A DNA stretch of 64,000 bases. Origin: Coriobacteriia bacterium. GTDB lineage: Bacteria; Actinomycetota; Coriobacteriia; WRKU01. The position numbers and the translations under genes are program-made. How positions within the stretch are numbered: the stretch's first letter is position 1; each line of letters opens with the position of its first letter. The stretch spans positions 3,097 to 67,096 of the forward strand of contig WRKU01000004.1 of assembly GCA_009777935.1 (NCBI GenBank), read 5' to 3'. Positions 9,846 through 46,231 of this stretch are shown piece by piece. The notes below the pieces were generated by a model. It was not told the DNA's origin. It did not search any database and saw only the letters and a program-made list of their open reading frames with translations.

Positions 9846-12072
9846 TCACCGACGCACCCAGAGGGCCGGACGAAGGCCGACGTCTGTCTGAGTAACGGAA
9901 TTGCCAGCCGGGTTGCCCCACACGCCGGTAGCACTGAGCTGACCCCACGAGCAGCGTATATCACCACTGCTGAGCACGTAGCCCGAATAGCCGCTCGTCT
10001 GACCCCGCGAGCGCATATGCCAAAAACGCGTAGTAGTCGATTCGGCGGTCTGATGATTGCCCCCGGCAGCTACCCCATAAGCGCGTGGGGCAAGCTGGGC
10101 ATCCGAGGTGATATTGGCTGTGCCCGTATTCGGGAAATAGCGCAATATCTCGGTACCGGAGAGCGAGAACGCTACGATACCTGTACCGGCGGTCGTGCTG
10201 GTGGTAGTAGTGCCGGCAAATACACCTGAAGGTCGTGACTGAGCCTGGGGGAAGCTCGTAAAGTTTACATTGGCCGGACTCAAAGCATTAAGAGGATTGA
10301 CATCGGTCTCAATGCCGAAGTTACGCGTGGTAACCACACCGGTAATGATGCCGTCTTCGTTACCAAAGTTTGCTTGGACGGCAAAGGCGTTTAGATCGGG
10401 ATAAAACATCGGTGTCATGTTATTCCACCACGTATCCATACCCTGTTGCATATTGGACACGTTGGTCGGTGCGCTGCCCGTACCCGTGTTTGCGAGCCAG
10501 AAATTGGCATTAGTCGTAGTAGCATTAAACCGCGGGCCGGTATCGGTTCCCGTAAAAGCAAGGTGAGGATCGGTGCGATAGATATGTTGCGTAACGATAA
10601 GGTCATAGGGCCCGTCTGAGGCGATGCGCCAGAAGGGAACGCCATCGATAAGAATACGTCGCGGAGAACCTATGGTAATGGGAGTCCCACCAATACCGGG
10701 AATCGTAACGGTAATCATATCGGACGCCGCGGTATGGTCGGTGCCTTCGACTGGTGCGCCGCCAGAGTTAGACACGAGGACCTGAAACTCAAAGGCGTTC
10801 GGGCGCGCAGTATTAACAGTATATTCAGTCTCATTGTTAGTCCCTGAAGCCGGACTCCACACGCCATTGATGCGTTGTTCCCATCGATAGGTCAAGTTGG
10901 GGTCGTCACCGGCATCTACCTTGAGAGTAACCAGTGTGTTGTAGGGTATCGTTATCGAGCGAACATCGTTGTCATTAATGGTCATGCCGAAGATTATCGG
11001 CGTGGGGTCCCAATTAATCGCATCGAGTATCTCTTTACCCTCGATGCTCGCCGCACGCAACGGCACACCATCGGTGCCAAAGGACGGCATGCCACCATCG
11101 CGCATCCTACTAAAATCATCGCGTGAGACGACTTCCATCTGAAGATCGATAGCGTAGTAGAAAGCTCCTTGCACGGGGTCAAAACCGGGCTGCGCCGAGA
11201 TAGTCGTCAGCAGCGGCAAACTCGTGTTGTTTGTATCACCGGGACGAATGACACTCGTATAGTAAAAGAACCCGTCATCGGCCAAGACCCACTTGTTAGA
11301 ACGCTGCGAAACAGGAGCTGCTGTCCACTGGGCATACGTCATTGCATGAGGCTGAGTCCAGTCCCAGTATTCGGCAAAAGGCATGCCGTCTGCGTCGTGT
11401 CCTCTGAGAGGGGCAGCTTGAGCAAGGCTTGTGAGGTTGGTGAGGCCGCGTATCGACCACATGTCATCGGTCACCGCAAACCAGGCCGTCTGGGTATCGA
11501 TTGCACTCCCAAAGGGTGCCTCAAGCGTGGCCGTCATCGTAGCTTCAGCGCTCGGAATAAGCGGCGCGAAGGTTGTAATATCGGAGATGATGTTGCGTCC
11601 ATCTGCCCACTCGGTACCATAGATGAACTGCATAAACTCGGCGGCCGAAATGCGCGCAATAAACGGTGTGATGCCAAGATTGTCGACACGTACAAGCTTG
11701 TCCCAAGTCCGCTCATCTTTGCGCGCAAACTCGTCGATAAGTACCGCTGCGGGAACAGTGTTGTTGGCAAACTGATTGAGACCGCGCTGAATTGCTCCCC
11801 ACGCAAAAGTACCGAGCAAAAGAAGAAGCATCACAATGATTGCTGCAATGAGAGTGTTTTGACGTTTGCGACTTTTGGGGGCGGTGCTTTCTGAGTCGTC
11901 AGTGCTGACCACCACGACAGTGGACGGATTGCTTGCGGTTTCGACTCCAGCTTCTTCGACGGCCTCCTTTACCGCTTCTTTGACGATTTCTTTAAGCGCA
12001 GGAGCATCGGAAGGGTTTAGTTCAGAAAGTGGGGACCCCCCCCCCCCGTGTGGTTTTCTCAGTTGTGCTCAT
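9846..12072 (-). CDS. Surface/secreted protein paralog 1, frameshifted at a G12 tract (ORF track shows 9846-11915)
   Basis: ATG 12072 with GAGGG RBS reads MSTTEKTTRGGG then hits TGA with G12; with G11 it joins the 689-aa ORF (741 aa). Basic RKRQ + hydrophobic helix + GTFAW, Ig-like middle, C-terminal W-x-x-RSRG...GLRPALWVRR. Confidence 0.85.
12036..12047 (-). repeat. Poly-G12 tract (C12 on + strand) in paralog 1
   Basis: Counted directly: ggga-cccccccccccc-gtg. Confidence 0.97.
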
Positions 12073-12247
12073 ATTGCCCTCATTTCATGCAAAAAACGCA
12101 TGTGTCGTTATGTTGACTACCGTTTTCAGTCTACCAAATTATGCTACCTTGACACAAGCACATTTCCTGCTTTCATTCTGTCGATTCCAACGCACTTTCT
12201 TCAACATAGGCAAACGCTACGCTTGCAGAATTTTATGGATACATTGC

Positions 12248-13315
12248 TCAGGCGATTCTTTCCTCGCGCAGAGCATCGTAATCAAGTTGAGTAGGCAAAA
12301 TACCGGTGAGTCGTTGTGCTGCTTCGCGTTCGAGCACGAGGTTGGTGCTGGCGATAGCGACCTCAACCATATCGATCGTGGGCTCGGCGGTGGTAAGACG
12401 TTGCATCTGTACGCCCGGCCACAGCATCACCTTCACGAGAGGGTTATCGGGACGTTTCCCCGCCCACTTGACCGTTACCTCGTAAGCAAGGCCCGCAACG
12501 AGCGGCAACAAGAGGATGCGTGAAGCCATGACGATGAGCGTCACCAGTACCGCATTCTCGATGCCAAGACTCATAACGGCTGCGCGTATCGGCACGAACG
12601 TGAATACGACGATAGAGATAACCGCCACCATCAAAAGAAATGACGTGCCGCATCGTACGTGCAGTCGCGGATAGTTCATGCAGTTTTCCGGGGTCAGCTC
12701 CGCGCCGTGTTCGACGGCACTGATAACCTTGTGCTCGGCACCGTGGTAGGCAAAGATACGCTTCATGTCGGGCATGAACCCGATGAGCCACACATACAAA
12801 AAGAACGCCACGAGACTCATAGCGCCATAGACGACGTTCCAGAGGAGTTGGCCGCGCGTGATGGGGCCGACGACGAGGTTGGTGAGCAGCGTCGGTGCGA
12901 CGACGAAGATACCGATAGCAAGCGCAAAGCCCGCAACGAGCGCAAACGCGGTCTCGCCGCGCCCCAGAGTCGGCTCTCCCCCACCGGTACTGCCGACGCC
13001 GGTGTCGATGCTCTCGTCGGCCTCATCGGTGCCGTCGCCTCCGCCTTCCATGCTGGCCATCTCGGCGCTAATCGTGAGTGCCTTGGTACCCAGCTTGAGC
13101 GAATCGACGAGAGCAACACAGCCGCGGACAACGGGCCACTTCATCCATGTCGGTCGGTCTTCGGCAGGCGTAAGATCGTGCTCCTGTGAATGGATAGTGC
13201 CCTGTATGTCACGTGCCGATACGGCCCAGCTGTATTTTCCGCGCATCATGACGCCTTCGATGACCGCTTGGCCCCCCAGATGGGTACAGGTTGGCTCCGC
13301 GTGCTCGTTATTCAC
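12248..13315 (-). CDS. DUF1385 (YqhQ-like) membrane protein
   Basis: GGQAVIEGVMM, YHGAEHK, HVRCGTSF, QRLTTAEP; start chosen at GTG 13315. Confidence 0.9.
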   Translation of the reverse strand: MNNEHAEPTCTHLGGQAVIEGVMMRGKYSWAVSARDIQGTIHSQEHDLTPAEDRPTWMKWPVVRGCVALVDSLKLGTKALTISAEMASMEGGGDGTDEADESIDTGVGSTGGGEPTLGRGETAFALVAGFALAIGIFVVAPTLLTNLVVGPITRGQLLWNVVYGAMSLVAFFLYVWLIGFMPDMKRIFAYHGAEHKVISAVEHGAELTPENCMNYPRLHVRCGTSFLLMVAVISIVVFTFVPIRAAVMSLGIENAVLVTLIVMASRILLLPLVAGLAYEVTVKWAGKRPDNPLVKVMLWPGVQMQRLTTAEPTIDMVEVAIASTNLVLEREAAQRLTGILPTQLDYDALREERIA

Positions 13316-13988
13316 GAGTAATCCGCTCGAACGGCTCACCACAAGCCATCTTGCCTTCAGGACAGGGGCCACGGCGACAGCTTGCACCGGCGTCCATGAA
13401 GATATACGGCGCCGTCGAATCGACGAGCTCGAGCATGCGATCGCTCACCTCACGAATCTCCCATTGTGCGCGACGGCAGCTTCGTAGGCTGAAGAAGTGC
13501 AACAATTCGCGCATATTCATCGTCACGACGATTTTTGTCTCCATCGCATTGGGCAGAAGGTAGCGCGCGTCCTCGGCCGCCACACCTGCCTCGATAAGCG
13601 CGCGGTACGAACGAAACGCCTCGGCACATGCAGCGAGAAATGCCTCGTGCATCGCGGTATCTGCCTCGATGTGGGGCGGCACGATGAACGTCGGCTCCTC
13701 GCGGTAATCGACGTAGCGCTGCGACTGCTGGTTATAGCTAGCGATACGATGGCGCACGAGCTGGTGAGTCATCGCACGCGACACCCCGTCGATAGCGAAA
13801 GTGTAAACGGCATGTTCCAGCGCCGAGAGATGGCCACTCGTCATGATGATGCGTAAGATTCGACGTACCTCGTCGTCGCTCATCGTCTCCACAAGCTCTG
13901 CGGCACCGACCGGCGCATAGCAGACGCGCGCAGCGGCTGCGATGGCACGCTCGGGGTATGGGGTACTGTTCAATAGCCGGACATCCAT
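13308..13988 (-). CDS. thyX: FAD-dependent thymidylate synthase
   Basis: GHLSALEH, HQLVRHRIASYNQQSQRY, ARYLLPNA, RSCRRAQWEIR; start ATG 13988. Confidence 0.97.
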   Translation of the reverse strand: MDVRLLNSTPYPERAIAAAARVCYAPVGAAELVETMSDDEVRRILRIIMTSGHLSALEHAVYTFAIDGVSRAMTHQLVRHRIASYNQQSQRYVDYREEPTFIVPPHIEADTAMHEAFLAACAEAFRSYRALIEAGVAAEDARYLLPNAMETKIVVTMNMRELLHFFSLRSCRRAQWEIREVSDRMLELVDSTAPYIFMDAGASCRRGPCPEGKMACGEPFERITRE

Positions 13989-14093
13989 GTACAATGCTCC
14001 TATTCGCAGGTGTCTTATTCTAACATGCGCCTGCACCGCTGGCAGAGTATTGATACGGTTTATTGATGTGCTTCGGCAGAAGGGCTGTCTTAC

Positions 14094-15014
14094 ATGCCAC
14101 ATTCCCGATACCTCTTCATCGTCAACCCCGTCGCAGCGAGCGGGGCGGCGGCGACACGCTTTGAGGCCCTCGCATCACAACGTGCCACGCTTGACCACGA
14201 TGTCGCCTTTACTGAGGCTCCCGGCCACGCTACCGAGATTGCGGCCCACGCACACGGCTACGATGTTGTCGTCGCGTTTGGAGGTGACGGCACGACGGCC
14301 GAAATCGTCAACGGGCTTATGCAGATTGCCGATGAAGAGAGGCCGGTGCTTGCTCTGCTCCCCTGTGGGTCAGGCAACGATAGTTGTCGTATGGCGGGAG
14401 TGCCCCTTACTATCGATGCAGCCTTTGAGGTGCTACGGACGGGTACCCCACGCAGTTTCGATCTCGGACTCTGTAACGATACCTACTTCGTCAATAGTTT
14501 CTCGACCGGCGTCGATGCGCAGGTCGTCACACGGACTCACGAACTCAAAGAAGCGACCGGACACACCGGGTTTGCGCTGTACGGACGCGCGCTCATCGAT
14601 GTGATCCTGCGCAACATGAAGGCCACGATCATCGAGGTGACGCGCAAAGGAAGCGATGACCGTAGTGATGTCGATGGGGCCGCCACCCGCCACGATGTTT
14701 TACTGTGTACGGTCACCAACGGTCAGACGTACGGCTCTGGCTTTCGTATCAACCCCAGCGCGCGTCCCGACGATGGGACGCTCACGATGTCCCACATTGC
14801 CTGGATTCCACGCTGGCGTGTGCTCTCGCTTCTTCCGGCACTCATGCGCGCGACACATCCACGGGTTAAGCACTATCGGGTAGACGAAGTCATCGCCTGC
14901 ACCGTCACAAACGTAACCGATGAGCCACTCGTTGCCCAGTGCGACGGCGAGATAGTAAGAGAGCGCACCTTTGCGATTTCGGTGCGCCCTCAAGCGTTGC
15001 GTATTCTGGTGTAG
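14094..15014 (+). CDS. Diacylglycerol kinase family lipid kinase (YegS/BmrU-like)
   Basis: IVNPVA, GGDGT, PCGSGND, NGQTYGSG, DGE motifs. Confidence 0.92.
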   Translation: MPHSRYLFIVNPVAASGAAATRFEALASQRATLDHDVAFTEAPGHATEIAAHAHGYDVVVAFGGDGTTAEIVNGLMQIADEERPVLALLPCGSGNDSCRMAGVPLTIDAAFEVLRTGTPRSFDLGLCNDTYFVNSFSTGVDAQVVTRTHELKEATGHTGFALYGRALIDVILRNMKATIIEVTRKGSDDRSDVDGAATRHDVLLCTVTNGQTYGSGFRINPSARPDDGTLTMSHIAWIPRWRVLSLLPALMRATHPRVKHYRVDEVIACTVTNVTDEPLVAQCDGEIVRERTFAISVRPQALRILV

Positions 15015-15015
15015 G

Positions 15016-15420
15016 CTACTCGGCAGGAGTATCGTCGGCCGGCTCGGGCTCTTCAGCGGGAGCCTCTTCGGCCGGGGCGGTCGCGGCGAACTCGGCTGCG
15101 CGACGTTCCTTCTCTTCGGCCCGTGCCTCACGCTCGGCGCGCTTAGCAGCCTCAATCTCCTCGGCCTTCTTGCGCAGTTCATCGCGCTTGGCCTCTTCCT
15201 TCTTGAGCGCCTCGGCAGCAGCCGCGCCGAACTTGTCGGCAAAACGCTGGACGCGCCCGCCGGTGTCGATCAGCTTCTGAGTGCCGGTAAAGAACGGATG
15301 GCATTTATCGCACAGCTCGATGTGGAGCGTGCCGCCTTTCGTCGACTGCGAATCAAACTTGTTGCCGCAGCTGCATTCGTATTCGGTCGGCGCGTACGCC
15401 GGGTGTATCTCTGGTTTCAT
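15016..15420 (-). CDS. rpmE: 50S ribosomal protein L31 (Zn-binding type) with charged C-terminal extension
   Basis: MKPEIHPAY, CSCG, CDKCHPFFTG, DTGGRVQRF, followed by about 65 Ala/Glu/Lys-rich residues. Confidence 0.97.
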   Translation of the reverse strand: MKPEIHPAYAPTEYECSCGNKFDSQSTKGGTLHIELCDKCHPFFTGTQKLIDTGGRVQRFADKFGAAAAEALKKEEAKRDELRKKAEEIEAAKRAEREARAEEKERRAAEFAATAPAEEAPAEEPEPADDTPAE

Positions 15421-15473
15421 CGTATCTCCTTATGCCTTGATTTCTGACCAAGGCGTAACAGCCCTTAAGTATA

Positions 15474-17030
15474 CTACATCTTTCCGAGGTCGCCGCCGTT
15501 TTGCGCGAGTTTTTTCGCCATCTTGCGCAGGAGTTCCTTGTTGTCCTCGGTCTGGCGGAACCCGGCGAGCAGCTGTTGCATTGCGCGGTCGGGGTCGAGC
15601 GGGTTAAGAATGTCGCGCACGCCATAGATGAAGTTCTCCCACTCGGGCTCGAGCAATAGATCTTCTCGACGCGTACCCGAAGCAATAATGTCGATAGCCG
15701 GGAAGATACGGCGATCGGCGAGCGCGCGGTCGAGGCGCAGCTCCATGTTACCAGTTCCCTTAAACTCTTCGAAGATGACCTCATCCATCTTAGAGCCGGT
15801 ATCGATGAGCGCGGTCGCCAGAATCGTAAGCGAGCCGCCATGCTCGATATTGCGCGCTGCACCAAAAAACCTCTTCGGCGGATAGAGCGCCGTTGAATCG
15901 ACACCACCGGACAAGATACGACCCGAGGCCGGCGAAGCAAGGTTGTAGGCGCGTGCAAGACGCGTAATAGAATCGAGCAAAATGACCACATCCTGGCCCA
16001 GTTCAACGAGGCGTTTTGCGCGCTCGATGACGAGCTCGGCGGCGGCGATGTGATTCTCGCTCGGCATATCGAATGTCGAACTGATGACCTCGCCGCGAAT
16101 CGAGCGCTCCATATCGGTGACCTCTTCGGGGCGCTCATCGACGAGCAAGCACATGAGGTGTACGTCAGGATTGTTCGCCGCAATCGAGGCCGCAATGTCT
16201 TTAAGTATTATCGTCTTGCCGGCCTTCGGAGGCGAGACGATGAGGCCGCGCTGCCCCTTGCCAACGGGCGCAACGAGATCGATGGTGCGCGCAGTGAAGT
16301 ACTCTTTGCCGTGCTCCATCATCAGACGTCCGGCGCCCTGGCCCGTTGGCGACCAGTCGGCCTCAGGGAAAACAGGTGTCAGATCAGCGAACTTTGCGCG
16401 TCCGCGTGCTTCTTCGGGCGACATACCGTTGACGCTCTCGATTTCGACGAGCGCACCAAACTTCTCGTTTGAGCGTGCTGCACGCATCTTACCAGCGATT
16501 GCATCGCCACGACGCAGACCATTTTTACGTATCATTGCCGTGCCGATATACGCATCGCCTGTGCTGGCAAGGTATCCTTTTGTGCGGAGGAAGCCGTAGC
16601 CCTCTTTCATCGTTTCGAGAATGCCGCTGACTTCAAGAAGCTCGGCTGGCTCGTAATCGTGTTTCTGTTTGTGCTGGTCGCGTTTGTGTCGATTATCGCG
16701 CTTATCGCGCGTATTGCGGTCGGTGCGATGATCGCGGCCCTCACGTCCTTCGCGTGCAGACTTCTTGTCGCTGCCGCCCGCATCGCCGGATCCACCGATG
16801 TAGTACTGCTTCTCTGTCGTGACCTGTGCTTCGCTTGCGGCAATAAGCGCATCGACGAGCTCGGCCTTCTTAAGTTTGGTGTCAACGCCGAACTCTTCGG
16901 CCATCGTACGCAGCTCAGCAACTTTCAGTTTCGTTATGTCTTCGCGCTTAAGTGCCGGCTTGCGTGGCTCTTCACGATAGCGCTGGGGCGCACCGGGGAC
17001 GCTGCGGCGGGGACGTTTGCGCGGGCTCAT
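15474..17030 (-). CDS. rho: Transcription termination factor Rho
   Basis: [44 protein letters not shown]. Confidence 0.98.
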
Positions 17031-17689
17031 GCGTTAACCACTTTCTCCCAGTCGGCTGCAAATGACTCAAGTCCGCGATCGGTTAGCGGGTGTTTGATGA
17101 GGTTTTTGAGTACGGAATACGGTACCGTCGCAATGTCGGCACCCATAAGCGCGGACTGCGTGACATGGTGCGCACTGCGAATCGATGCGGCGATGACCTC
17201 GACCTTGTGGCCAAAATCATAGTTAGTGATAGCGAGCACGACATCGGCAAGCTGCGCGAGACCGTCCTCGCTAATGTCGTCAAAACGCCCGACGAACGGT
17301 GAGATGTAGCGTGCACCGGCACGAGCGGCCATAATAGCCTGCGGAACGCTAAAACAGAGCGTGAGGTTTGTGTCAATGCCATCTGCCGCCAGCGCTTTTG
17401 TTGCCGCAAGACCTTCGATTGTCGTCGGCACTTTAACGACAACGTTAGGGGCAATCGCACTTAGCCGCTTGCCTTCTTCGATGATGTCAGCACGCATCTC
17501 GCCGACCGCCTCGGCCGAGACCGGCCCGTCGACGAGCTTACAGATACGCCCGATGTGTGTCTCGAAATCGGCGAGCTTGCCACCGATACGCGCATAGAGC
17601 GTCGGGTTTGTCGTCACACCGGCGACGACGCCCCAGCTCGCTGCTTCCTCGACCTCGGCTAAATCAGCCGTATCCAAGAAAAACTTCAT
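17027..17689 (-). CDS. fsa: Fructose-6-phosphate aldolase / transaldolase
   Basis: MKFFLDTA, GVTTNPT, VVVKVP, YISPFVGRFDD, AASIR. Confidence 0.93.
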   Translation of the reverse strand: MKFFLDTADLAEVEEAASWGVVAGVTTNPTLYARIGGKLADFETHIGRICKLVDGPVSAEAVGEMRADIIEEGKRLSAIAPNVVVKVPTTIEGLAATKALAADGIDTNLTLCFSVPQAIMAARAGARYISPFVGRFDDISEDGLAQLADVVLAITNYDFGHKVEVIAASIRSAHHVTQSALMGADIATVPYSVLKNLIKHPLTDRGLESFAADWEKVVNA

Positions 17690-17869
17690 GGCTCGTAAAC
17701 CTCTCTCTATATCTGACGTGTCGAGCTTTTGCTTGCGACACGTATCCTACCAACGCTTAAATGTGGGATTATCAAGAAGGGTGCCCGCGAATGCGAACAC
17801 CCCTACTATACTAGAGGACGAGCACAAGTGCAAATGCTCGTACTGCACCGCTGCACGCACGCACAAACT

Positions 17870-18220
17870 CTAATAGTCAATCTCGTAAAAAACTTGGTTT
17901 ATCATACTTTCAAAAACACCAAGCGAAAAAACACCGCAGAGCAGAAGAATGAGCAATAGTATCACGACTGCACTGATAATGAGCATGGCCTTTGCCCAGT
18001 TCTGCAATGACAGATTCACCTTACCGCCAAAGGCAATAAAAGCAAGCGCTGCCATATACAAGATAAAACCGATGAGCGGAATGAGGTTCAAGAGACCGAG
18101 CGCCCATACCCCCACCCATGTGCCAATCGACACCGGCTCGTGCATGAGGTTTGCCGCTACACCCTTATCTGCAGCGACCTCAACGCTCGCTTTACCCGCA
18201 ATATCTGTTTCGTCGGTCAT
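17870..18220 (-). CDS. Small hypothetical membrane protein
   Basis: Two to three hydrophobic segments, LIPLIG and NWAKAMLI; RBS GAAAGGA upstream of ATG 18220. Confidence 0.75.
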   Translation of the reverse strand: MTDETDIAGKASVEVAADKGVAANLMHEPVSIGTWVGVWALGLLNLIPLIGFILYMAALAFIAFGGKVNLSLQNWAKAMLIISAVVILLLILLLCGVFSLGVFESMINQVFYEIDY

Positions 18221-18302
18221 AGCGCTTCCTTTCGTTCGGATTAACGTACGCCCCACTATATCATGTTACTGCGCGTCATACGAAGTGGTTCAGGTAAACC
18301 GT

Positions 18303-18401
18303 TACGCTTGGCTTGAAGTGGCTGCGCAGCCCGCGCTCGATATACTTACTTACATCGAGCGCGAGACGCAAGTCGCTTCGTTTGGGCGGACGACGTGTCA
18401 T
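18303..18401 (-). repeat. 99-bp repeat, copy A, downstream of paralog 2, containing a long hairpin
   Basis: 91/99 identical to 21466-21564 by manual alignment; inner arms 18333-18344 and 18351-18362. Confidence 0.9.
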
Positions 18402-18444
18402 GTGAGTGCCTTATCCAAAAAGACTGCGGCCTCCAAGTTGGATG

Positions 18445-20617
18445 TCACCGCCTCACCCAGAGGGCGGGGCGGATGCCGCGGCTCGTAAGGGTAACTGTGC
18501 CACCAGACGGTGAGGCCCACTCACCGCCGCCGAGCAGGTTGCCCCAAGAACCAGTCGCACGGCCACCAGCATCCACGATGCCCGCACGAACGGATGTGTT
18601 ACCACGCGAGCGTATCCACCAATCACGAGCTGTTCCCGGCGAGCCTGAATCGGCCGAATCATGCCCAATACGGCCCAGCTGCGTCGCACTCGTAGCACGC
18701 GCTGCCATACCGGACGTTCTCGCATCGTTGACGCCATCGGGAAAAAAGTTGACGACCTCAAGACCTGAGAGCGGAAATGCGATGATGCCGCCGGCATTGG
18801 CCGGGTTGGTGTCGGCCGCTGCGTTGTTTACGAGTGTTGTACTTGGACGCGATGCCGGACGGTCTCCATACGTTGCAAAGGTCGTATTTGCAAGCGTCCC
18901 GGTCACGATCGTACCGTCGGCATGCTCAATGCCCAGTGTAGCGGTCGTGTTGCCGTTGCCCCAGGCACCGGTGAAGGCAGGAGCGACTACCACATCGCGT
19001 AGCTCGCCGTTTAAGGGGGCGTTGTGGTTAAACCATGCGTCCATGTTGGCCATCAGATTAGATTTCGTGTTGTTAGGGCGATCGATGAGCCAGAATGCGT
19101 TGGTGTCCGACGTCGTGTTAACCATGTTGCTGTTTAGCGTATAAGGGGTGTCATGATAGACGTTTTCAGTCACGATTAAGTCATAGGTATAGGTGCCATC
19201 ATTGACACTGGCGATACGCCAAAACCATATGCCGTCAAACTGCATGTGTGCGTTAGCGGCTGTAGAGCCCAAGTGGCGTTGCGGGATGCCGCCCGTTGGT
19301 GCTTGGGGTCCCAGAGGTGAAGTGGGGCCGATAATCCTAATCTCACCCGAGATGCTTGTAAAGCCGTCACCTTCAACCGGTGCTGCACCGGAGTTTGAGA
19401 CGAGTGCACGGTAGGTGAAGGTTCCAGGCACACTCGTGCTGGCATAATAAGTGGCATTCGCATGAGACCCTGGTGCGGTCTCCCATTCATCGATGGTGTT
19501 CTTGCGCTGCCACAGATACGTGAGAGGCTGTATGCCGGTTGTATTGGCTTCGACGCCGAGCGCTGGAGTAGCGCTACCTAAGGTAACGGTTTTCTCGTTG
19601 CCAACAAGAGAGGTGGACTCGCCATTAATAGTAAGGTCAATAATGGAAGGAGCCGTCCACGTCATTGAGTCCAGAATGGCCCTACCCTGCGTTGATGCCG
19701 CACGCAAAGGTACGCCGTCGGTGCCGCTGCTGGGTACGAGGCCGTCTTTCATGGCACTCACATCATCTTGGGTGACGACCTCCATCTGGATGTCGATGGC
19801 GTAGTAGAAAGCGTGCTTGAGCGGATCAAAACCTGAAGCGGCGCTCACGCCGGTCATCAAGGGAAGCGTATTAGTCTCTGGTCTGATGACGCTTGTGTAG
19901 TAGAAAAAGCCATCATCAGCAAGTACCCACTTGTTTGAGCGCTGTGAGAGAGGTAGTGCGGTCCACTCGGTGTAGGTCAGGTGATCTGAGTTCCACTCCC
20001 AGTACTCGCTGAACGGAGTGCCGTCAGCAGCATGTCCTCGGGCAGGAGAAGCTTGCGTGAGGCTTGCTGGGTCAGTCAGACCGCGAATTGACCACATGTC
20101 AGGCGTGACGTTAAACCACGCTGTTTGAGTATCAATAAGGGTGCCATCTGCTCCCCACGTGCCTGAATCGAGCGTGGGAGTTAAGGTAGTCTCTATAGCT
20201 GCCGGAATAGGGTCGGCAAAAGGAACGCCTTCTATGATGTTTCGCCCACGGCTCCAGTCTTCAGCTTCTATCCACTGCATAAACTCAGATGCTGAGATAC
20301 GTGCTATGAAAGGTGAGTTGCCTGAGTTTTGTACCCATACTCTCTTTTGCCACTCAGTAGCATCAAGACGTCTGAATTCATCGTGCAGTACGGCTCTTGG
20401 TGTGTTTAGACTGGCAAACTGATTGATAGCACGCTGCATCGTACCCCACGCAAAGGCTCCTAAGAGTAGGAGGAGCAGGGCGATTATGATGGCTATGGTG
20501 GTGTTTTGACGCTTGCGACTGCGTGGTGCGTCGGTACCGGTAGCAGCGTCAATGGCAGAGGGCTCTACCTCAGAAAGTGGAGACCCCCCCCCCCCGCAGG
20601 GTGTGATTATCGCTCAT
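18445..20617 (-). CDS. Surface/secreted protein paralog 2, frameshifted at a G12 tract (ORF track shows 18445-20439)
   Basis: ATG 20617 with GAGGG RBS gives MSDNHTLRGGG then TGA with G12; with G11 it continues SPLSEVEP...RSRKRQNTTIAIIIALLLLLLGAFAWGTMQR into the ORF (723 aa). Confidence 0.85.
20584..20595 (-). repeat. Poly-G12 tract (C12 on + strand) in paralog 2
   Basis: Counted directly: aga-cccccccccccc-gcag. Confidence 0.97.
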
Positions 20618-20743
20618 GTGTGCCCTCATTTCATAGAAAAAACGTACGTGATTAGCTACTCTCTAGTGTAGCACCTGCTCGGCAAAACACAAAATTTTAC
20701 GTAGTTATAGTTTAGCGAATTAACGTTATTCGGCGGTACTTGA

Positions 20744-21019
20744 CTAGAATAAATCGCTATGTGTGCCGGTACGCGTAAGCGTAAGTGTCAAGATATCCTC
20801 CTCAATGCGGTACACGAGCAGCCAATCAGGTTGGATGTGGCACTCTCGGTGATGTGCGTAATTCCCTATAAGAGCATGGTCTCGATGGACGGCATCGAGA
20901 GGTTTTCCTTGCGCAAGCTGCGTGATAATCTCATCAAGGAGTTCAATATGAAGGCCACGTTTTACTGCACGTTTATATTCTTTGCGAAATCTGCCGGTTA
21001 GCTTTACTTGATATTTCAT
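20744..21019 (-). CDS. yafQ: Type II TA toxin, YafQ family mRNA interferase
   Basis: DHALIGNY...RECHIQPDWLLVY...RTGTHSDLF; overlaps the antitoxin stop. Confidence 0.93.
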   Translation of the reverse strand: MKYQVKLTGRFRKEYKRAVKRGLHIELLDEIITQLAQGKPLDAVHRDHALIGNYAHHRECHIQPDWLLVYRIEEDILTLTLTRTGTHSDLF

Positions 21020-21291
21020 GCTTTTAAGTCTGCAAACATTTCGTCAAGATCAGTATACGCCTTAACATTCGGGTCATAAGTAATACGCTCGGCCTCTTCT
21101 ATGGCTGCAAGCGTTACCGCATTTGGCTTATTGCGGGAAACCTCGAACGGGATACCTTGCGTACGCACAGCCTGTCGCAAAAATATGGTAATCGCGCTTG
21201 TCGTGTTAAGGCCTAAATCTGCAAACAAATTCTCAGCTTCTCTCTTGAGATCTGGATCCATACGAATGCTCATGTTAGTGCTTGCACCCAT
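21016..21291 (-). CDS. dinJ: Type II TA antitoxin, RelB/DinJ family
   Basis: SIRMDPDLK...GLNTTSAITIFLRQAV...GIPFEV, directly upstream of yafQ. Confidence 0.92.
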   Translation of the reverse strand: MGASTNMSIRMDPDLKREAENLFADLGLNTTSAITIFLRQAVRTQGIPFEVSRNKPNAVTLAAIEEAERITYDPNVKAYTDLDEMFADLKA

Positions 21292-21465
21292 AGCACTCTC
21301 CTTTCCAGTATGGCATTATTGTATTGCATAGTAGATACATTGTCAATACATAGTTATTTTTTGTAGCTGGCGGTTTTCTGCCACCCGTACATATCTACGG
21401 GCAAGACTGAGTGGTGTCTGTAGCAGTTAACCGAGCGTAGCGAGAGCGAGGGCACAGGCAAACGC

Positions 21466-21564
21466 TACGCTTGGTTTCAAGTGACTGCGCAACCCGCGCT
21501 CAATGTACTTGCTTACATCGAGCGCAAGACGCAAGTCGCTTCGTTTGGGCGGACGACGTGTCAT
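21466..21564 (-). repeat. 99-bp repeat, copy B, downstream of paralog 3
   Basis: 91/99 identical to 18303-18401; inner arms 21496-21507 and 21514-21525. Confidence 0.9.
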
Positions 21565-21603
21565 AGTGCGGCTCCGGCTGCTGGTTCAGCCATCGCTTGG
21601 ATG

Positions 21604-23753
21604 TCAACGCCTCACCCAGAGAGCGGGGCGGAGGCCGTAAGAGGTAGTAGTAATCGAAGCGCCACCGGGAACGTACCACGTGCCATTGTCGAGCACGCCA
21701 CCCCAGGAGCCGAACACATTGCCATCGGTGATCACGCGGCCCGCCGTATGGGCAGCCTCACCACGAGAGCGGGACCACCAAGCGCGCGCTGTCGTGGTGC
21801 CTGCGTGATTGGCTCCGGCTCCGCGGCCAATGCGGCCTAATGTGGAGTCAGTTGTGGTCGTTGCGACCCCACCGCCTCCCGTAGCAGTGTTCGGGAAATA
21901 GCGCAAGATTTCGGTACCGGAGAGTGCAAAGGTCACAATACCTTGACCAGCTGTGGTCGAGGTGGTGATAGCAGCTGCGGTGCGTACCGGATTCGAGGGA
22001 CGCGACTGTGCCTGCGGGAAGGTCGTGAAGTTCACGTTTGCAATGCTTCCGGCGTTATTCGTGGTAAGTCCTGTTTCAACGCCAAAGTTGCGTGTATCGA
22101 CTGCACCCGTAATGATGCCGGCACCCGTGCCAAAGTCAGCTTGGATGGCGTAGGCATTCAGGTCCGGATGGGTGGCAGGGGTCAGATTATTCCACCACGT
22201 GTCCATCGAGACTTGTAAGTTAGATACCGCACTCGGGGTCGACCCTGAGGCACTATTAGAAAGCCAGTAGTTGCCGTTGCCGCTTGCGTTAAACATAGGC
22301 CCGCCACTGCCGGTAAAGTTAACGGCTGGGTTGGTACCGTAGACGTATTGGGTCACGATTAGGTCATAGTAGCCATTTGAGGCAATGCGCCAAAACGGGA
22401 TGCCGTCGATAACGATGCGCTGGGGCGAGCCTATCACGATAGGATCGCCACCGATGCCAGGAAGTAGCTCTACTTCTACGGTAATCGTATCTGATGCGGT
22501 GGTGTGTCCGTCTCCCTCGACCGGCGCGTTGCCTGAGTTTGATACCAGCACCCTAAACTCGTAGGTGCCTACTACGCTGGTATCTACCGTGTATTCGGTC
22601 TCGTCGTTAGTACCTGGTGCATCACTCCAGGGTGAGTTGGTGGTTTGCCACAGGTAGGTCAGATCAGGGTCGCTACCAGCGTCAACTTCGAGGGTGACTG
22701 GCGTACCTGGCGCCACAGTTATCTCAAGACCTTCGATACCGTTGATGCTCAAGCCTCCGATAATCGGTGCAGTCCAGTTAATGCTATCAAGAATGGCCTT
22801 ACCCTGTGTGGATGCCGCACGGAGCGGTACGCCATCGGTGCCACTGCTGGGGACAAGGCCATCTTTCATGGCACTCACATCATCTTGCGTGACGACCTCC
22901 ATTTGGATATCGATGGCATAGTAGAAGGCATGCTTGAGTGGATCAAATCCCGTGGCGGCAGAGACTCCTGTCATGAGGGGAAGCGTATTGTTGTCTGGTC
23001 TGATGACGCTTGTGTAGTAGAAAAAGCCATCGTCAGCGAGCACCCACTTGTTAGCACGTTGCGCTAGGGGAAGTGCTGTCCATTCGGTGTAGGTCAGGTG
23101 ATCTGAGTCCCAGTCCCAATACTGGCTGAAAGGCATGCCGTCAGCTGCGTGTCCTCTGGCAGGAGCTGCATTCGTGATACTCGTTGGGTCAGTAAGGCCA
23201 CGAATCGACCACATGTCAGAGGTGACGTTAAACCAGGCTGTTTGCGTATCGATGAGAGTGCCGTCTACGCCCCAGGTGCCTGAGTCAAGCGTGGGAGTTA
23301 AGTTAGTTTCGATAGCTTCAGGTATGGGAGGAGCAAAAGGAATGCCTTCTATGATGTTTCTGCCACGCGTCCAATCTTCAGCCTCGATCCACTGCATAAA
23401 CTCAGATGCTGAGATGCGTGCAATAAAGGGTGAGTTGCCTGAGTTTTGTACCCATACTCTCTTTTGCCACTCGGCTGCATCAAGACGCCTGAATTCATCG
23501 TGAAGTACGGCACGTGGTGTGTTCAGGCTCGCAAACTGATTGATAGCGCGCTGCATCGTACCCCATGCAAAGGCTCCCAGCAGGAGGAGCAGGAGTGCAA
23601 CTATGATAGCTATGGTGGTGTTTTGACGCTTGCGACTTTTTGGTGCCGCGTTAGAAGTGTCCGCGCTACTGACAGCGCTCGTAGACGAGGGCTCTACGCT
23701 ATTTTGCGATGGCCCCCCCCCCCCAGCAAGCGTAAAAAGGGCTGTTCAAACAC
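21604..23753 (-). CDS. Surface/secreted protein paralog 3, interrupted at a G12 tract; start uncertain (ORF track shows 21604-23556)
   Basis: The ORF frame extends upstream through KSRKRQNTTIAIIVALLLLLLGAFAWGT to the G12 tract, but has TGA at 23748 and no in-frame start. TTG 23749 needs G11; GTG 23753 needs G13 or G10. Confidence 0.78.
23713..23724 (-). repeat. Poly-G12 tract (C12 on + strand) in paralog 3
   Basis: Counted directly: gg-cccccccccccc-agc. Confidence 0.97.
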
Positions 23754-23774: not shown

Positions 23775-25052
23775 TCAGTGTCCGGCGGTATCGCGGGGGG
23801 TGGGGCGATAGAACTTCGTGTCTTTGAGAGCATCGGGCAGGTACTGTTGCTCGACGTAACCTTCTGCGTAGCTATGGGGATAAAGGTAGCGGCCGTAGTT
23901 TTCGCTGCCGGGACGATTGCGGTCACGCAGATGGCTCGGTACGTCGTACTCGGCACCAGCACGCACGGCGGCCAGCGCTTCGTCGATGGCGAGATACGAC
24001 GCATTGGACTTGGGTGCGCGCGCGAGGTAGATTGCAGCTTGCGACAGGATGATACGGCACTCGGGCATGCCGATAATCTCGGCCGAGCGAAACGCAGCCT
24101 CGGCGATAAGCAGTGCCTGTGGGTCAGCCATGCCGATGTCCTCAGAGGCCAGTATCATCATGCGGCGTGCGATAAACTTCGGGTCCTCTCCCCCGTGCAA
24201 CATGCGCGCGAGCCAGTAGACCGACGCATCCGGATCAGAGCCGCGCATCGATTTGATGAATGCGCTGATGATGTCGTAGTGATAGTCGCCGTCTTTGTCG
24301 TACGGTGTTTGCTTGGACGGCATTGCGTCGGCAACCATCTCAAGCGTCAGCTCGCGCGCTTCCTGTGCCATCGCAAGCTGAGCAGCGAGCTCGAGCGTAG
24401 TCAAGGCGACGCGCGCGTCACCGCCGGCCATCGCGGCGATGGCTGTGACGACTTCGTCGGTCGCGCTGAGCTGCCCGTTGAGGCCTCGCTCATCGGCCAG
24501 TGCGGTGCGCACAATAGTGGCGACATCTTCGTCGGTAAGGAGCGCCAGCTCGATAACGCGCGAACGCGATACCAGCGCACTGTTGACCTCAAAGTAGGGG
24601 TTTTCGGTCGTCGCACCGATAAGTACGACGATGCGATCTTCAACGGCGTGAAGAAGCGCGTCTTGCTGAGACTTCGAGAAACGATGAATCTCGTCGATGA
24701 AGAGAATGGTGCGCCGCCCTTCAAGGGCGAGCCGCTCGCGTGCCGCAGTCAGCGAAGCGCGCAGATCGGCGACGGTGCCGCCGATGGCCGAGACCTCATC
24801 AAAAAACGACTCGGTCGTCGCGGCGATGATGCGCGCAAGCGTCGTCTTGCCGGTGCCGGCCGGCCCAAAGAGCAGAATTGAAGAGAGCGCATCGGCTGCG
24901 ATTACGCGACGAAGCCAGGTGCCCTCGCCCACGATGGTGCTCTGTCCCACGAACTCGTCGAGCGTGCGCGGGCGCATACGCACCGCAAGCGGCGCGACGG
25001 CCTCAACGGCACGTGCGCGAACATCGGCGAAAAGATCGGGCTGTTTTGGCAT
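23775..25052 (-). CDS. rarA: Replication-associated recombination protein A (RarA/MgsA)
   Basis: PLAVRMRP, GPAGTGKTT, FIDEIHRF, GATTENPYF, SAFIKSMRGSDPDA, ASEDIG. Confidence 0.97.
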   Translation of the reverse strand: MPKQPDLFADVRARAVEAVAPLAVRMRPRTLDEFVGQSTIVGEGTWLRRVIAADALSSILLFGPAGTGKTTLARIIAATTESFFDEVSAIGGTVADLRASLTAARERLALEGRRTILFIDEIHRFSKSQQDALLHAVEDRIVVLIGATTENPYFEVNSALVSRSRVIELALLTDEDVATIVRTALADERGLNGQLSATDEVVTAIAAMAGGDARVALTTLELAAQLAMAQEARELTLEMVADAMPSKQTPYDKDGDYHYDIISAFIKSMRGSDPDASVYWLARMLHGGEDPKFIARRMMILASEDIGMADPQALLIAEAAFRSAEIIGMPECRIILSQAAIYLARAPKSNASYLAIDEALAAVRAGAEYDVPSHLRDRNRPGSENYGRYLYPHSYAEGYVEQQYLPDALKDTKFYRPTPRDTAGH

Positions 25053-45692: not shown

Positions 45693-46231
45693 AGCAACTC
45701 CCTTCGATAATATAGCACCTGCGTCCTTACCGCTTTCCTCATTATAGCATATTTATGCTACTTTCCAAACCTCTACTTGCCAAACCTGTCCGGAGCGACA
45801 TTTCGACCACATTCGGTTCAGCACATGCACAGGCCCGAGCGGTGCTGGTGTGCAACCACCCGAGCCCGTGCGTTTCCCTTTTTCGCCAACGCCCTATACG
45901 AACGCTACGCGAAAGGAGATGAGTTCCCTTACCTGCTCTCTGTATGCCGCTTAGCATACACTCCCTGGCATAGCCCACTTCACACGGAAGGGTCATGCGG
46001 GTAAGTCTGGACGCACGCCACGCGCCTCGGTGGCAGCAATGTCGCCCGCCACGGTCCCCCAGCTGTCCACGCGAGCCGCCGTAGTGGCAGAGTTGCCCGG
46101 AGACCGCAGCCACTGGTTCTGCCAGAAAGCGGCGGAACGCTATTCGTCCGCGTGCATCGTAACTCATTCCTACGACTGCGCCACTTGCCCTACAGTCGCA
46201 CCGCTAGTGTAACAGACTTACTACGGTGCCT

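Follow-up and report, generated by a model that had tools for sequence, protein, structure and literature searches.

Is a family of surface-protein-like genes in an uncultured Coriobacteriia bacterium switched on and off by G tracts close to the gene starts? The question was raised by a 64-kb stretch of its genome (contig WRKU01000004.1; C4:3097-67096; hereafter the window, meaning the whole stretch analysed), in which three homologous genes on the minus strand, referred to as copies 1, 2 and 3, each had a coding-strand tract of exactly 12 G (12036-12047, 20584-20595 and 23713-23724), as given in the initial annotation. These tracts, read as C12 on the plus strand, were the only homopolymers of at least 10 nt in the window (0.01 expected from shuffled sequences), in agreement with the earlier statement that no other run of such length was present. 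The own-genome assembly, whose placement in Coriobacteriia follows a genome grouping, comprised 1.107 Mb in 21 contigs and was 86% complete, and the genome size was estimated at approximately 1.1-1.3 Mb; below, C denotes contigs of this genome, L outside contigs and G genomes of the same order. Slipped-strand phase variation of a surface-protein family was judged to be the best explanation of the tracts, with a probability of roughly 0.7.

The open frames following the tracts contained 729, 712 and 702 codons in copies 1, 2 and 3, respectively (about 2.1 kb each). Their products shared 48-63% mutual identity, and each possessed an N-terminal tail, an RKRQ motif and a hydrophobic segment. In copies 1 and 2, an ATG was followed by 7-8 codons ending in C and then by the tract. 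In copy 1, the ribosome-binding site (RBS) and leader occupied 12048-12081, with GAGGG at 12081-12077 and an ATG at 12072-12070 opening the codons MSTTEKTT(R). The tract (12036-12047) was followed by the body (9846-12035), which encoded a long N-terminal tail, RKRQ and the hydrophobic anchor, a BsaA/TasA-like N domain, an immunoglobulin (Ig)-like middle, and a variable C-terminal part with the end GLRPALWVRR. As assembled, copy 1 was OFF, with a TGA at 12022-12024 closing a 16-codon frame at G12. In copy 2, the RBS and leader (20596-20627) included GAGGG at 20627-20623 and an ATG at 20617-20615 with the codons MSDNHTL(R), and the tract (20584-20595) led into the 712-codon frame of the body (18445-20583); this copy was also OFF as assembled, with a TGA at 20572-20570, and would be ON at G11. 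In both copies, the G12 frame thus met a TGA four codons past the tract and the G13 frame a slightly later stop, while G11 (or G8 or G14) gave full products of 741 and 723 amino acids (aa). It had been proposed that all three tracts lie within the first codons after a start and that none of the genes can be translated from its apparent start; both statements held for copies 1 and 2, whereas copy 3 had neither start nor leader and its G12 was in frame with the body. The remark that gene callers clip the anchor of copies 2 and 3 was borne out: the products predicted for them, 664 and 650 aa long, begin after the hydrophobic segment.

The argument depends on the leader ATG being the true start, which was indicated by tract-less paralogs that use the same leader and ATG in frame. 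In one of them (C1:2086), the leader "gaaatgagggcagcATG" was followed at the tract position by ACGGGAAGCGCTGGC, a degenerate tract; this gene read ACGGGAAGCGCTGGCGCTGGC where the tract would be and was in frame with RKRQ and the anchor. A short BsaA-like tract-less paralog (C8:41059) started with MSTEK, comparable to MSTTEK of leader type A. Three leader types were recognized in the genome, all with "GAAATGAGGGC..ATG", and the leader of copy 1 was conserved at about eight loci. In copy 2, no in-frame ATG, GTG or TTG was present from the tract through the end of the anchor segment, so that the anchor could be translated from the leader ATG only.

Upstream of the leaders, promoter-like blocks of the form TTGnnn-N16-18-TAnACT were common to eight aligned upstream regions of the family and would leave a 5' untranslated region (UTR) of 50-90 nt. 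These blocks were read from the alignment, and the promoters are accordingly described as putative: in copy 1, TTGTGT at 12157-12152 and TAGACT at 12133-12128 separated by an 18-nt spacer (12128-12157, minus strand), and in copy 2, TTGTGT at 20692-20687 and TACACT at 20670-20665 separated by 16 nt (20665-20692, minus strand). A generic sigma-70 scan did not call the family promoters.

A tract behind a short leader might also act without gating the main frame. In a leader-peptide attenuation switch, as exemplified by pil1 of Streptococcus gallolyticus, a terminator located downstream is controlled by a short open reading frame (ORF) spanning the tract, and the start of the main protein lies further on. 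The OFF states described here do hold a short ORF of 15-18 codons, but the terminator scan found no terminator-like hairpin after the leader ORF on the coding strand, the interval from tract to anchor was without a start codon, and the same leader was fused in frame in tract-less paralogs. The attenuator model was rejected for want of a terminator and a downstream start, and such control appears very improbable.

The system was not confined to the three genes to which it had originally been assigned. G/C runs of 5, 6, 7 and 8 nt numbered 683, 108, 12 and 4 in the genome, and those of 9 to 15 nt numbered 2, 2, 3, 16, 8, 2 and 2, with one run each of 16, 18 and 29 nt; the spectrum was bimodal, with 38 runs of at least 9 nt and a mode of 12. 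A/T runs reached a maximum of 9 nt. Twenty-nine of the 38 long runs were located within or just after a leader, and about 10 further tracts were promoter-proximal, a count that includes both tracts of a G9-T-G6 site (C9:50703) and the hybrid tract of copy 3, which is also among the 29. The earlier picture of a three-gene system was therefore too narrow, since about 20 paralogs and some other genes were gated in this manner.

The paralog family comprised 35 matching segments in the genome, none of which (0/35) contained an internal stop. Family bodies directly after a tract were found 17 times and paralogs without a tract seven times, and several more leaders were present at contig ends, including C21:87, whose body was recovered only in another assembly (L038). 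In total, approximately 17-24 tract-gated paralogs shared the conserved leader, and the whole family of about 25 paralogs made up approximately 5% of the genome, its genes being dispersed singly or in tandem, as in an array at C9:45.7-50.9 kb. Identity was highest in the 70-nt leader (mean 82%, up to 97%), compared with 67% in the N-terminal and 55% in the C-terminal part of the bodies. The N- and C-terminal halves clustered differently, which indicates that the family genes are mosaics.

These figures also bear on the view of a decaying family, in which the genes are pseudogenes inactivated by ordinary frameshift mutations. Most copies are indeed out of frame, and copy 3 is without a promoter and start. 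Nevertheless, all breaks fell at the same tract, bodies of 650-770 codons were free of internal stops in every copy, and the tract and leader were the most conserved part (leader mean 82% against 55-67% for the bodies). A pseudogene family was rejected on account of the intact bodies, and decay is regarded as a most improbable cause of the frameshifts.

Across the scorable loci, the ON length was G11 with a single exception (C8:53107, ON at G12, where a T to G change extends the run), and both non-ON frames stopped within 14-18 codons of the ATG. About 15 loci were reliable, of which about 12 were at G12, one at G10, one at G13, and one ON. The sole ON locus among them, C18:2407, had G11 in two assemblies and encoded a product of 774 aa.

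Comparison of tract lengths with related assemblies, which had been suggested as a check, gave a divided result. Two other assemblies of the same strain (ENA ERZ27257348 and JGI 3300002469) were reached via neighbouring housekeeping proteins; exact-protein look-ups with the clipped ORFs and own-genome paralogs returned no match. Two of the seven between-assembly comparisons differed, each by one G. Copy 3 had G12 here and G11 in the ENA assembly (L040), the sole gap in 11.5 kb at 99.98% identity, and C21:87 had G12 here, in a garbled contig end, and G11 in the ENA assembly, where it was ON and a 614-aa gene was called from the leader ATG. The other five were unchanged: copy 1 (G12 in both; L042), C18:2407 (G11 in both), C15:2110 (G12 in both), and two loci of a second organism described below (G12 in both). 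The compared assemblies may share reads or derive from related samples. With this reservation, the G11/G12 differences are suggestive of length polymorphism.

Long G runs are error-prone on Illumina instruments, and a "G's end" artefact at G-tract templates has been described (PMC9187656). The majority of outside contigs terminated at G tracts, and all three assemblies broke at these loci. Contig ends at G tracts consisted of garbled G/C-rich sequence (e.g., C4:1-300, C2:1-105, C12:45984-46083 and C19:1-80), so that tract lengths at contig ends are not trustworthy; the breaks and the G/C junk at the tracts fit the "G's end" effect (PMC9187656). It could accordingly be argued that G11 is the true length everywhere, that the genes are constitutive, and that G12 is a product of sequencing or assembly. 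Against such a uniform error, two or three assemblies agreed on G11 for C18:2407 and on G12 for copy 1 as well as C15:2110, all in near-identical contexts, G10 and G13 occurred as well, and a systematic gain of one base would be unusual, as polymerase chain reaction and sequencing tend toward base loss. Moreover, even a G11 run would be a slippage hot spot. Since G11 and G12 each recurred at specific loci in near-identical contexts, a uniform assembly error is improbable.

Taken as contingency loci, the gated genes show homopolymers in the 5' coding region of a length beyond chance, with one length class yielding the full product and the other two early stops. Slipped-strand switching is favoured because the tract lies between the true start and the anchor, both OFF frames stop within 5-7 codons, and tract-less paralogs are in frame. 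It is further favoured because G11 ON alleles exist, the tract was the only indel at copy 3 between same-strain assemblies, and no mismatch-repair genes were found. MutS_V, MutL (DNA_mis_repair) and NucS_C domains were all absent from the 86%-complete genome, in which positive controls were matched.

Several observations weigh on the other side. About 12 of the 15 reliable loci were at exactly G12, i.e., the ON length plus one (ON+1), with one locus ON, and the second organism was alike, which is unlike a set of independent random switches. The proposal of contingency switching made in the initial annotation therefore remains the best-supported mechanism, but the near-uniform OFF state is unexpected from simple independent switching and needs an extra assumption: a fast equilibrium around 12, gene conversion of the leaders, or selection for OFF. 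Because the compared assemblies may stem from the same or related samples, both G11/G12 differences could have arisen as noise when a long homopolymer was assembled, and C21:87 sits in a garbled contig end. In addition, the location and function of the proteins rest on weak profile matches below curated cut-offs.

The uniformity of the tracts is the starting point for an alternative in which G12 is itself the selected functional state. Ribosomes slipping by +1 on the GGG run, or slippage of RNA polymerase on the tract, would then let every cell make some of every variant, and G11 alleles would be "locked high" mutants. Such recoding would account for the exact ON+1 length at about 12 of 15 reliable loci and at most loci of the second organism, tRNA-Gly can re-pair perfectly on the G run after a shift to the +1 frame, and a single four-base step at CGGG would bring the frame back. 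ARAGORN identified 29 tRNA genes in the 86%-complete assembly; those for tRNA-Gly were UCC and GCC only, and as the CCC isoacceptor was not found, decoding of GGG may be slow. On the other hand, the tRNA genes found included none with an extended anticodon, and no conserved stimulatory element, such as a Shine-Dalgarno-like box or an adjacent stop, was present at the tract. Natural G11 alleles exist, tract-less paralogs are plainly in frame, and tract-bearing families of the same order have mixed lengths, both ON and OFF, with no single fixed out-of-frame length. In Bifidobacterium breve, pili were seen only in engineered in-frame strains (PMC9187656). A general four-base reading of CGGN would disrupt the body at 10 in-frame CGG codons, and global CGGN decoding was ruled out on this ground. 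Recoding is on balance unlikely. A two-tier arrangement was also considered, in which about 20 genes are kept one base out of frame with low expression in every cell, G11 locks single genes high, and the two tracts per gene serve as recombination joints at which cassettes are swapped or deleted, as in copy 3; it is rated slightly less likely still. Apart from the tRNA genes mentioned above, SelA, SelB and tRNA-Sec were present on C8.

Under slipped-strand phase variation, the gated cassette would consist of a promoter, a short 5' UTR, the RBS GAGGG, the ATG, 7-8 codons ending in C, and a G tract encoding Arg-Gly-Gly-Gly. At G11 (or G8 or G14), the leader ATG would be joined to the tail, RKRQ, anchor and body, giving the ON state; at G12 or G13, translation would stop 4-7 codons on, with no other start before the anchor, giving the OFF state. 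Tract length would be altered by strand slippage during replication and, since neither MutS/MutL nor NucS was seen, slippage would stay uncorrected, so that each locus would flip heritably and presumably reversibly. Fast switching could place the consensus at a mutational mode of G12, one base from ON, and G11 would appear only at loci under selection, such as C18:2407, or near 50:50. Gene conversion of the leaders may contribute to the uniform G12, because leader identity (mean 82%) exceeds that of the body parts. Transcription at some loci may be modulated by a second tract, which lies 18-19 nt ahead of the -35 box, and recombination or deletion between the two tracts could strip the promoter-leader cassette, as copy 3 appears to illustrate.

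Copy 3 differed from the other two copies upstream of its tract. The promoter, RBS, leader and start codon were all absent from its upstream sequence; instead, the flank "cagccctttttacgcttgct" (23725-23744, minus strand), of the class found at promoter-proximal tracts, lay 30 nt past the stop of a gene for a RarA/MgsA-type AAA ATPase (23775-25052, minus strand), which ends 50 nt upstream of the tract. The G12 tract (23713-23724) was in frame with the body (21604-23712), which was intact with zero internal stops, yet this frame opens at a TGA without a start, and upstream GTG or TTG codons would require G13 or G10. The same flank was found ahead of a G9 tract at C2:118021, and related flanks preceded the promoter-proximal tracts at C9:48280 (G10) and C4:218 (G13), 18-19 nt upstream of the -35 box. 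Downstream of the tract, the flank "ccatcgcaaaatagcgtagagccc" was of the coding class, occurring also after the leader tracts at C9:45743, C9:48408 and C17:3258. Because an upstream-class flank meets a coding-class downstream flank in this manner, copy 3 appears to have arisen when the two tracts of a single gene underwent deletion or recombination, with loss of the promoter, RBS and ATG. The independent ENA assembly (L040) contained this junction as well. Copy 3 is probably silent, or read through from the upstream gene. The eight surface states that had been computed from three independent switches consequently do not follow, because copy 3, having lost its promoter and start, cannot switch ON by the same one-base change.

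With regard to the nature of the proteins, Pfam gave only weak PKD-like and DUF6273-like matches for the family. The N domain matched NCBIfam TIGR04090 (BsaA-family SipW-dependent biofilm matrix protein) at E values of 2e-7 to 2e-4; the scores of 21-31 bits are under the curated cut-off of 60 bits, indicating remote homology of the N domain only. A profile search against the PDB matched an Ig-like decoration protein at residues 313-391. Copies 1-3 had no LPXTG motif with anchor, their proteins ending in GLRPALWVRR, and Pfam found no pilin domains in them. An AlphaFold2 model of copy 2, built from a paralog-only alignment, was unusable (predicted local distance difference test score, pLDDT, 52.8). 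The genome encoded a SipW-type signal peptidase (TIGR02228, 78.5 bits, above the cut-off; C8:46066-46530) within a cluster at C8:39956-47050 (L054:2948-10050). Besides this peptidase (431 aa), the cluster contained two BsaA/TasA-like paralogs, short and tract-less, and a pilin-like protein of 1122 aa whose isopeptide domains were assigned to DUF7601/SpaA/Cna_B/FctA. It likely represents a core fibre operon with a relation to the gated family. From these matches we infer that SipW processes the family members, which would be variable proteins at the surface or associated with fibres, membrane-anchored or secreted, and composed of a BsaA/TasA-related N-terminal domain, an Ig-like middle and a highly variable mosaic C-terminal part. 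Compared with known SipW-dependent fibre proteins of the TasA/BsaA type, the likeness lies in the N-domain match and in the fact that the genome also encodes two short BsaA-like paralogs and a peptidase of the SipW type; the family proteins differ in being 2-3 times longer and in having additional Ig-like and variable C-terminal regions, and fibre formation by them is putative.

The conserved ...GLRPALWVRR end brought to mind a diversity-generating retroelement, and this candidate was discarded: a reverse transcriptase gene was present (C10:2392-3537; RVT_1, 43.8 bits) without a template repeat, as no nearby repeat matched the family or anything else in the genome. A repeat of about 125-190 nt was noticed in the window at approximately 46003-46128 (C4:49099-49224), with 12 other copies in the genome. 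It reads as a DUF6273-like C-terminal module (...QWLRSPG...[10 protein letters not shown] / GVRPALWVR and a stop). On C9, C11, C14 and C17, several copies followed family genes at a distance of 100-560 nt, and four copies were located on C7, about 1 kb apart. The open frame of the window copy differs from the DUF6273-like reading, and the copies may be remnants, gene ends or a mobile repeat.

Family relatives were rare. Among 5.8 billion proteins, only the genome's own and two ENA proteins were found. In the genome_contigs collection, the leader pattern was absent and there were no protein relatives; among 40 related genomes, distant N-domain matches occurred in only two. The family thus appears to be essentially restricted to this lineage. 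The same cassette, mostly at G12 and ON at G11, was present in a second organism, represented by Ga0099364 and ENA contigs; the family genes of this organism shared 80-87% nucleotide identity with those described here, and there was otherwise no nucleotide similarity.

The tract design itself was found across the order. Runs of at least G11 were present in 188 of 401 sampled Coriobacteriia genomes, and the genome studied here was among the densest. One genome (G010) had a secreted RCC1-repeat family arranged as ATG, 8 codons, G12-14 and a signal peptide, with mixed lengths and two of five members ON. Another (G013) had G11-13 ahead of the signal peptides of a BspA-type leucine-rich repeat protein (Pfam LRR_5) and an apparent multihaem cytochrome. 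The cytochrome was recognized by eye from CxxCH motifs (G013:C88, L072); G13 stood just before its signal peptide, and the mature end began with KYAGYE. Because G13 precedes the signal peptide of this apparent multihaem cytochrome, parts for extracellular electron transfer may also be phase-variable in this order. In a further genome (G009), the members of a distant paralog family were preceded by a conserved "cgcaaaaatgta[G11-12]" element. The mixed lengths and states in same-order relatives fit ordinary contingency behaviour and argue against a special meaning of G12.

Tract gating was also seen outside the family. In the genome studied here, a C12 tract (C2:6377-6388) lay 13 nt after the ATG of a gene that encodes a polytopic membrane protein of 377 aa without Pfam matches; only C13 or C10 would place this gene in the ON state. 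In G007, G11 followed 8 codons of a polytopic membrane protein homologous to that gene (E 9e-14). As the homolog in G007 also has a tract, this membrane protein looks like a second conserved type of tract-gated gene. In G009, the element stood as non-coding "gttcgcaaaaatgta[G11-12]ctc" a few hundred nt upstream of the genes (C75, C83, C94 and C122; L019, L022, L026 and L028), a version of the switch located in the promoter or UTR.

Phase variation by homopolymer slippage is textbook knowledge for a few Gram-negative pathogens; among commensal Actinomycetota, it was shown only recently, in one genus. No report was found for Coriobacteriia, in keeping with what the initial annotation had stated, but the same design has been described in the actinobacterial genus Bifidobacterium (PMC9187656), so that the claim of an undescribed group was only partly borne out. 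In B. breve UCC2003, the sortase-pilus genes bbr_0113 and bbr_1889 are switched by a G10-12 tract (Penno et al., 2022; PMC9187656). A single-colony culture contained approximately 37% G11 and 60% G12 at one locus, the dominant genotype being ON+1; replication slippage yields an ON subpopulation, and tract lengths in databases were reported to be unreliable (PMC9187656). Both systems belong to Actinomycetota, have a 5' intragenic G tract that splits a surface-protein gene into two ORFs, and are dominated by ON+1. The B. breve tract follows the Sec signal and occurs in one gene per pilus operon, the products being LPXTG pilins encoded by the first gene of a sortase cluster; the tract described here precedes the anchor, 7-8 codons past the ATG, and is found in about 20 paralogs, whose products have GLRPALWVRR ends and which are not in sortase operons. 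Switching was measured in B. breve, whereas here it is predicted from assembled sequence.

The B. breve pilus tract is the closest studied case, while Neisseria opa is closest in organisation. The opa genes carry CTCTT repeats in the region coding for the signal peptide, exist in about 11 copies, and encode outer-membrane beta-barrels of a Gram-negative pathogen. Both opa and the present genes form a dispersed mosaic surface-protein family with its own promoter and slippery leader repeat per copy, most copies being OFF; the repeat is a pentamer in opa and a homopolymer here. For the second tract class, promoter-associated poly-G is known from subfamily II tpr genes of Treponema pallidum and from porA and opc of Neisseria. 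The promoter-proximal tracts described here (G9-13, 18-19 nt upstream of -35) resemble these, but lie outside the -35/-10 spacer, and their effect on transcription is putative. The poly-G/C phasomes of Campylobacter jejuni and Helicobacter, such as that of H. canadensis with 29 tract-associated genes (PMC2823697), likewise have tens of tracts in a small genome, no functional mismatch repair, and tracts of both translational and promoter type in genes related to the surface. Their tracts are shorter (G8-11) and are found in unrelated genes with mixed ON/OFF states, whereas here one family and one cassette are involved, nearly all at G12.

What is new in the present system is its scale, with about 20 gated paralogs on approximately 5% of a small genome, and the use of one shared promoter-leader-tract cassette. 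To this are added the second, promoter-proximal tract with an apparent tract-to-tract deletion, the near-uniform ON+1 state, and the reuse across the order of a design in which the tract precedes the signal peptide (RCC1, BspA-type leucine-rich repeat, apparent multihaem cytochrome and membrane protein). This reuse suggests a lineage-wide strategy of stochastic surface variation among putative gut symbionts that lack mismatch repair. Annotation pipelines clip or miss the gated genes and assemblies break at the tracts, and the population data behind these metagenome-assembled genomes could be mined for ON/OFF states.

Toxin-antitoxin pairs and KilA-N genes repeatedly adjoined family genes. In the window, a RelB antitoxin/YafQ toxin pair was encoded on the minus strand between copies 3 and 2 (20744-21291), and a PhdYeFM/ParE pair was found in the second organism. 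The sites of these neighbours outside the window were L039:409-977, L039:5076-5366 and L038:12163-12570.

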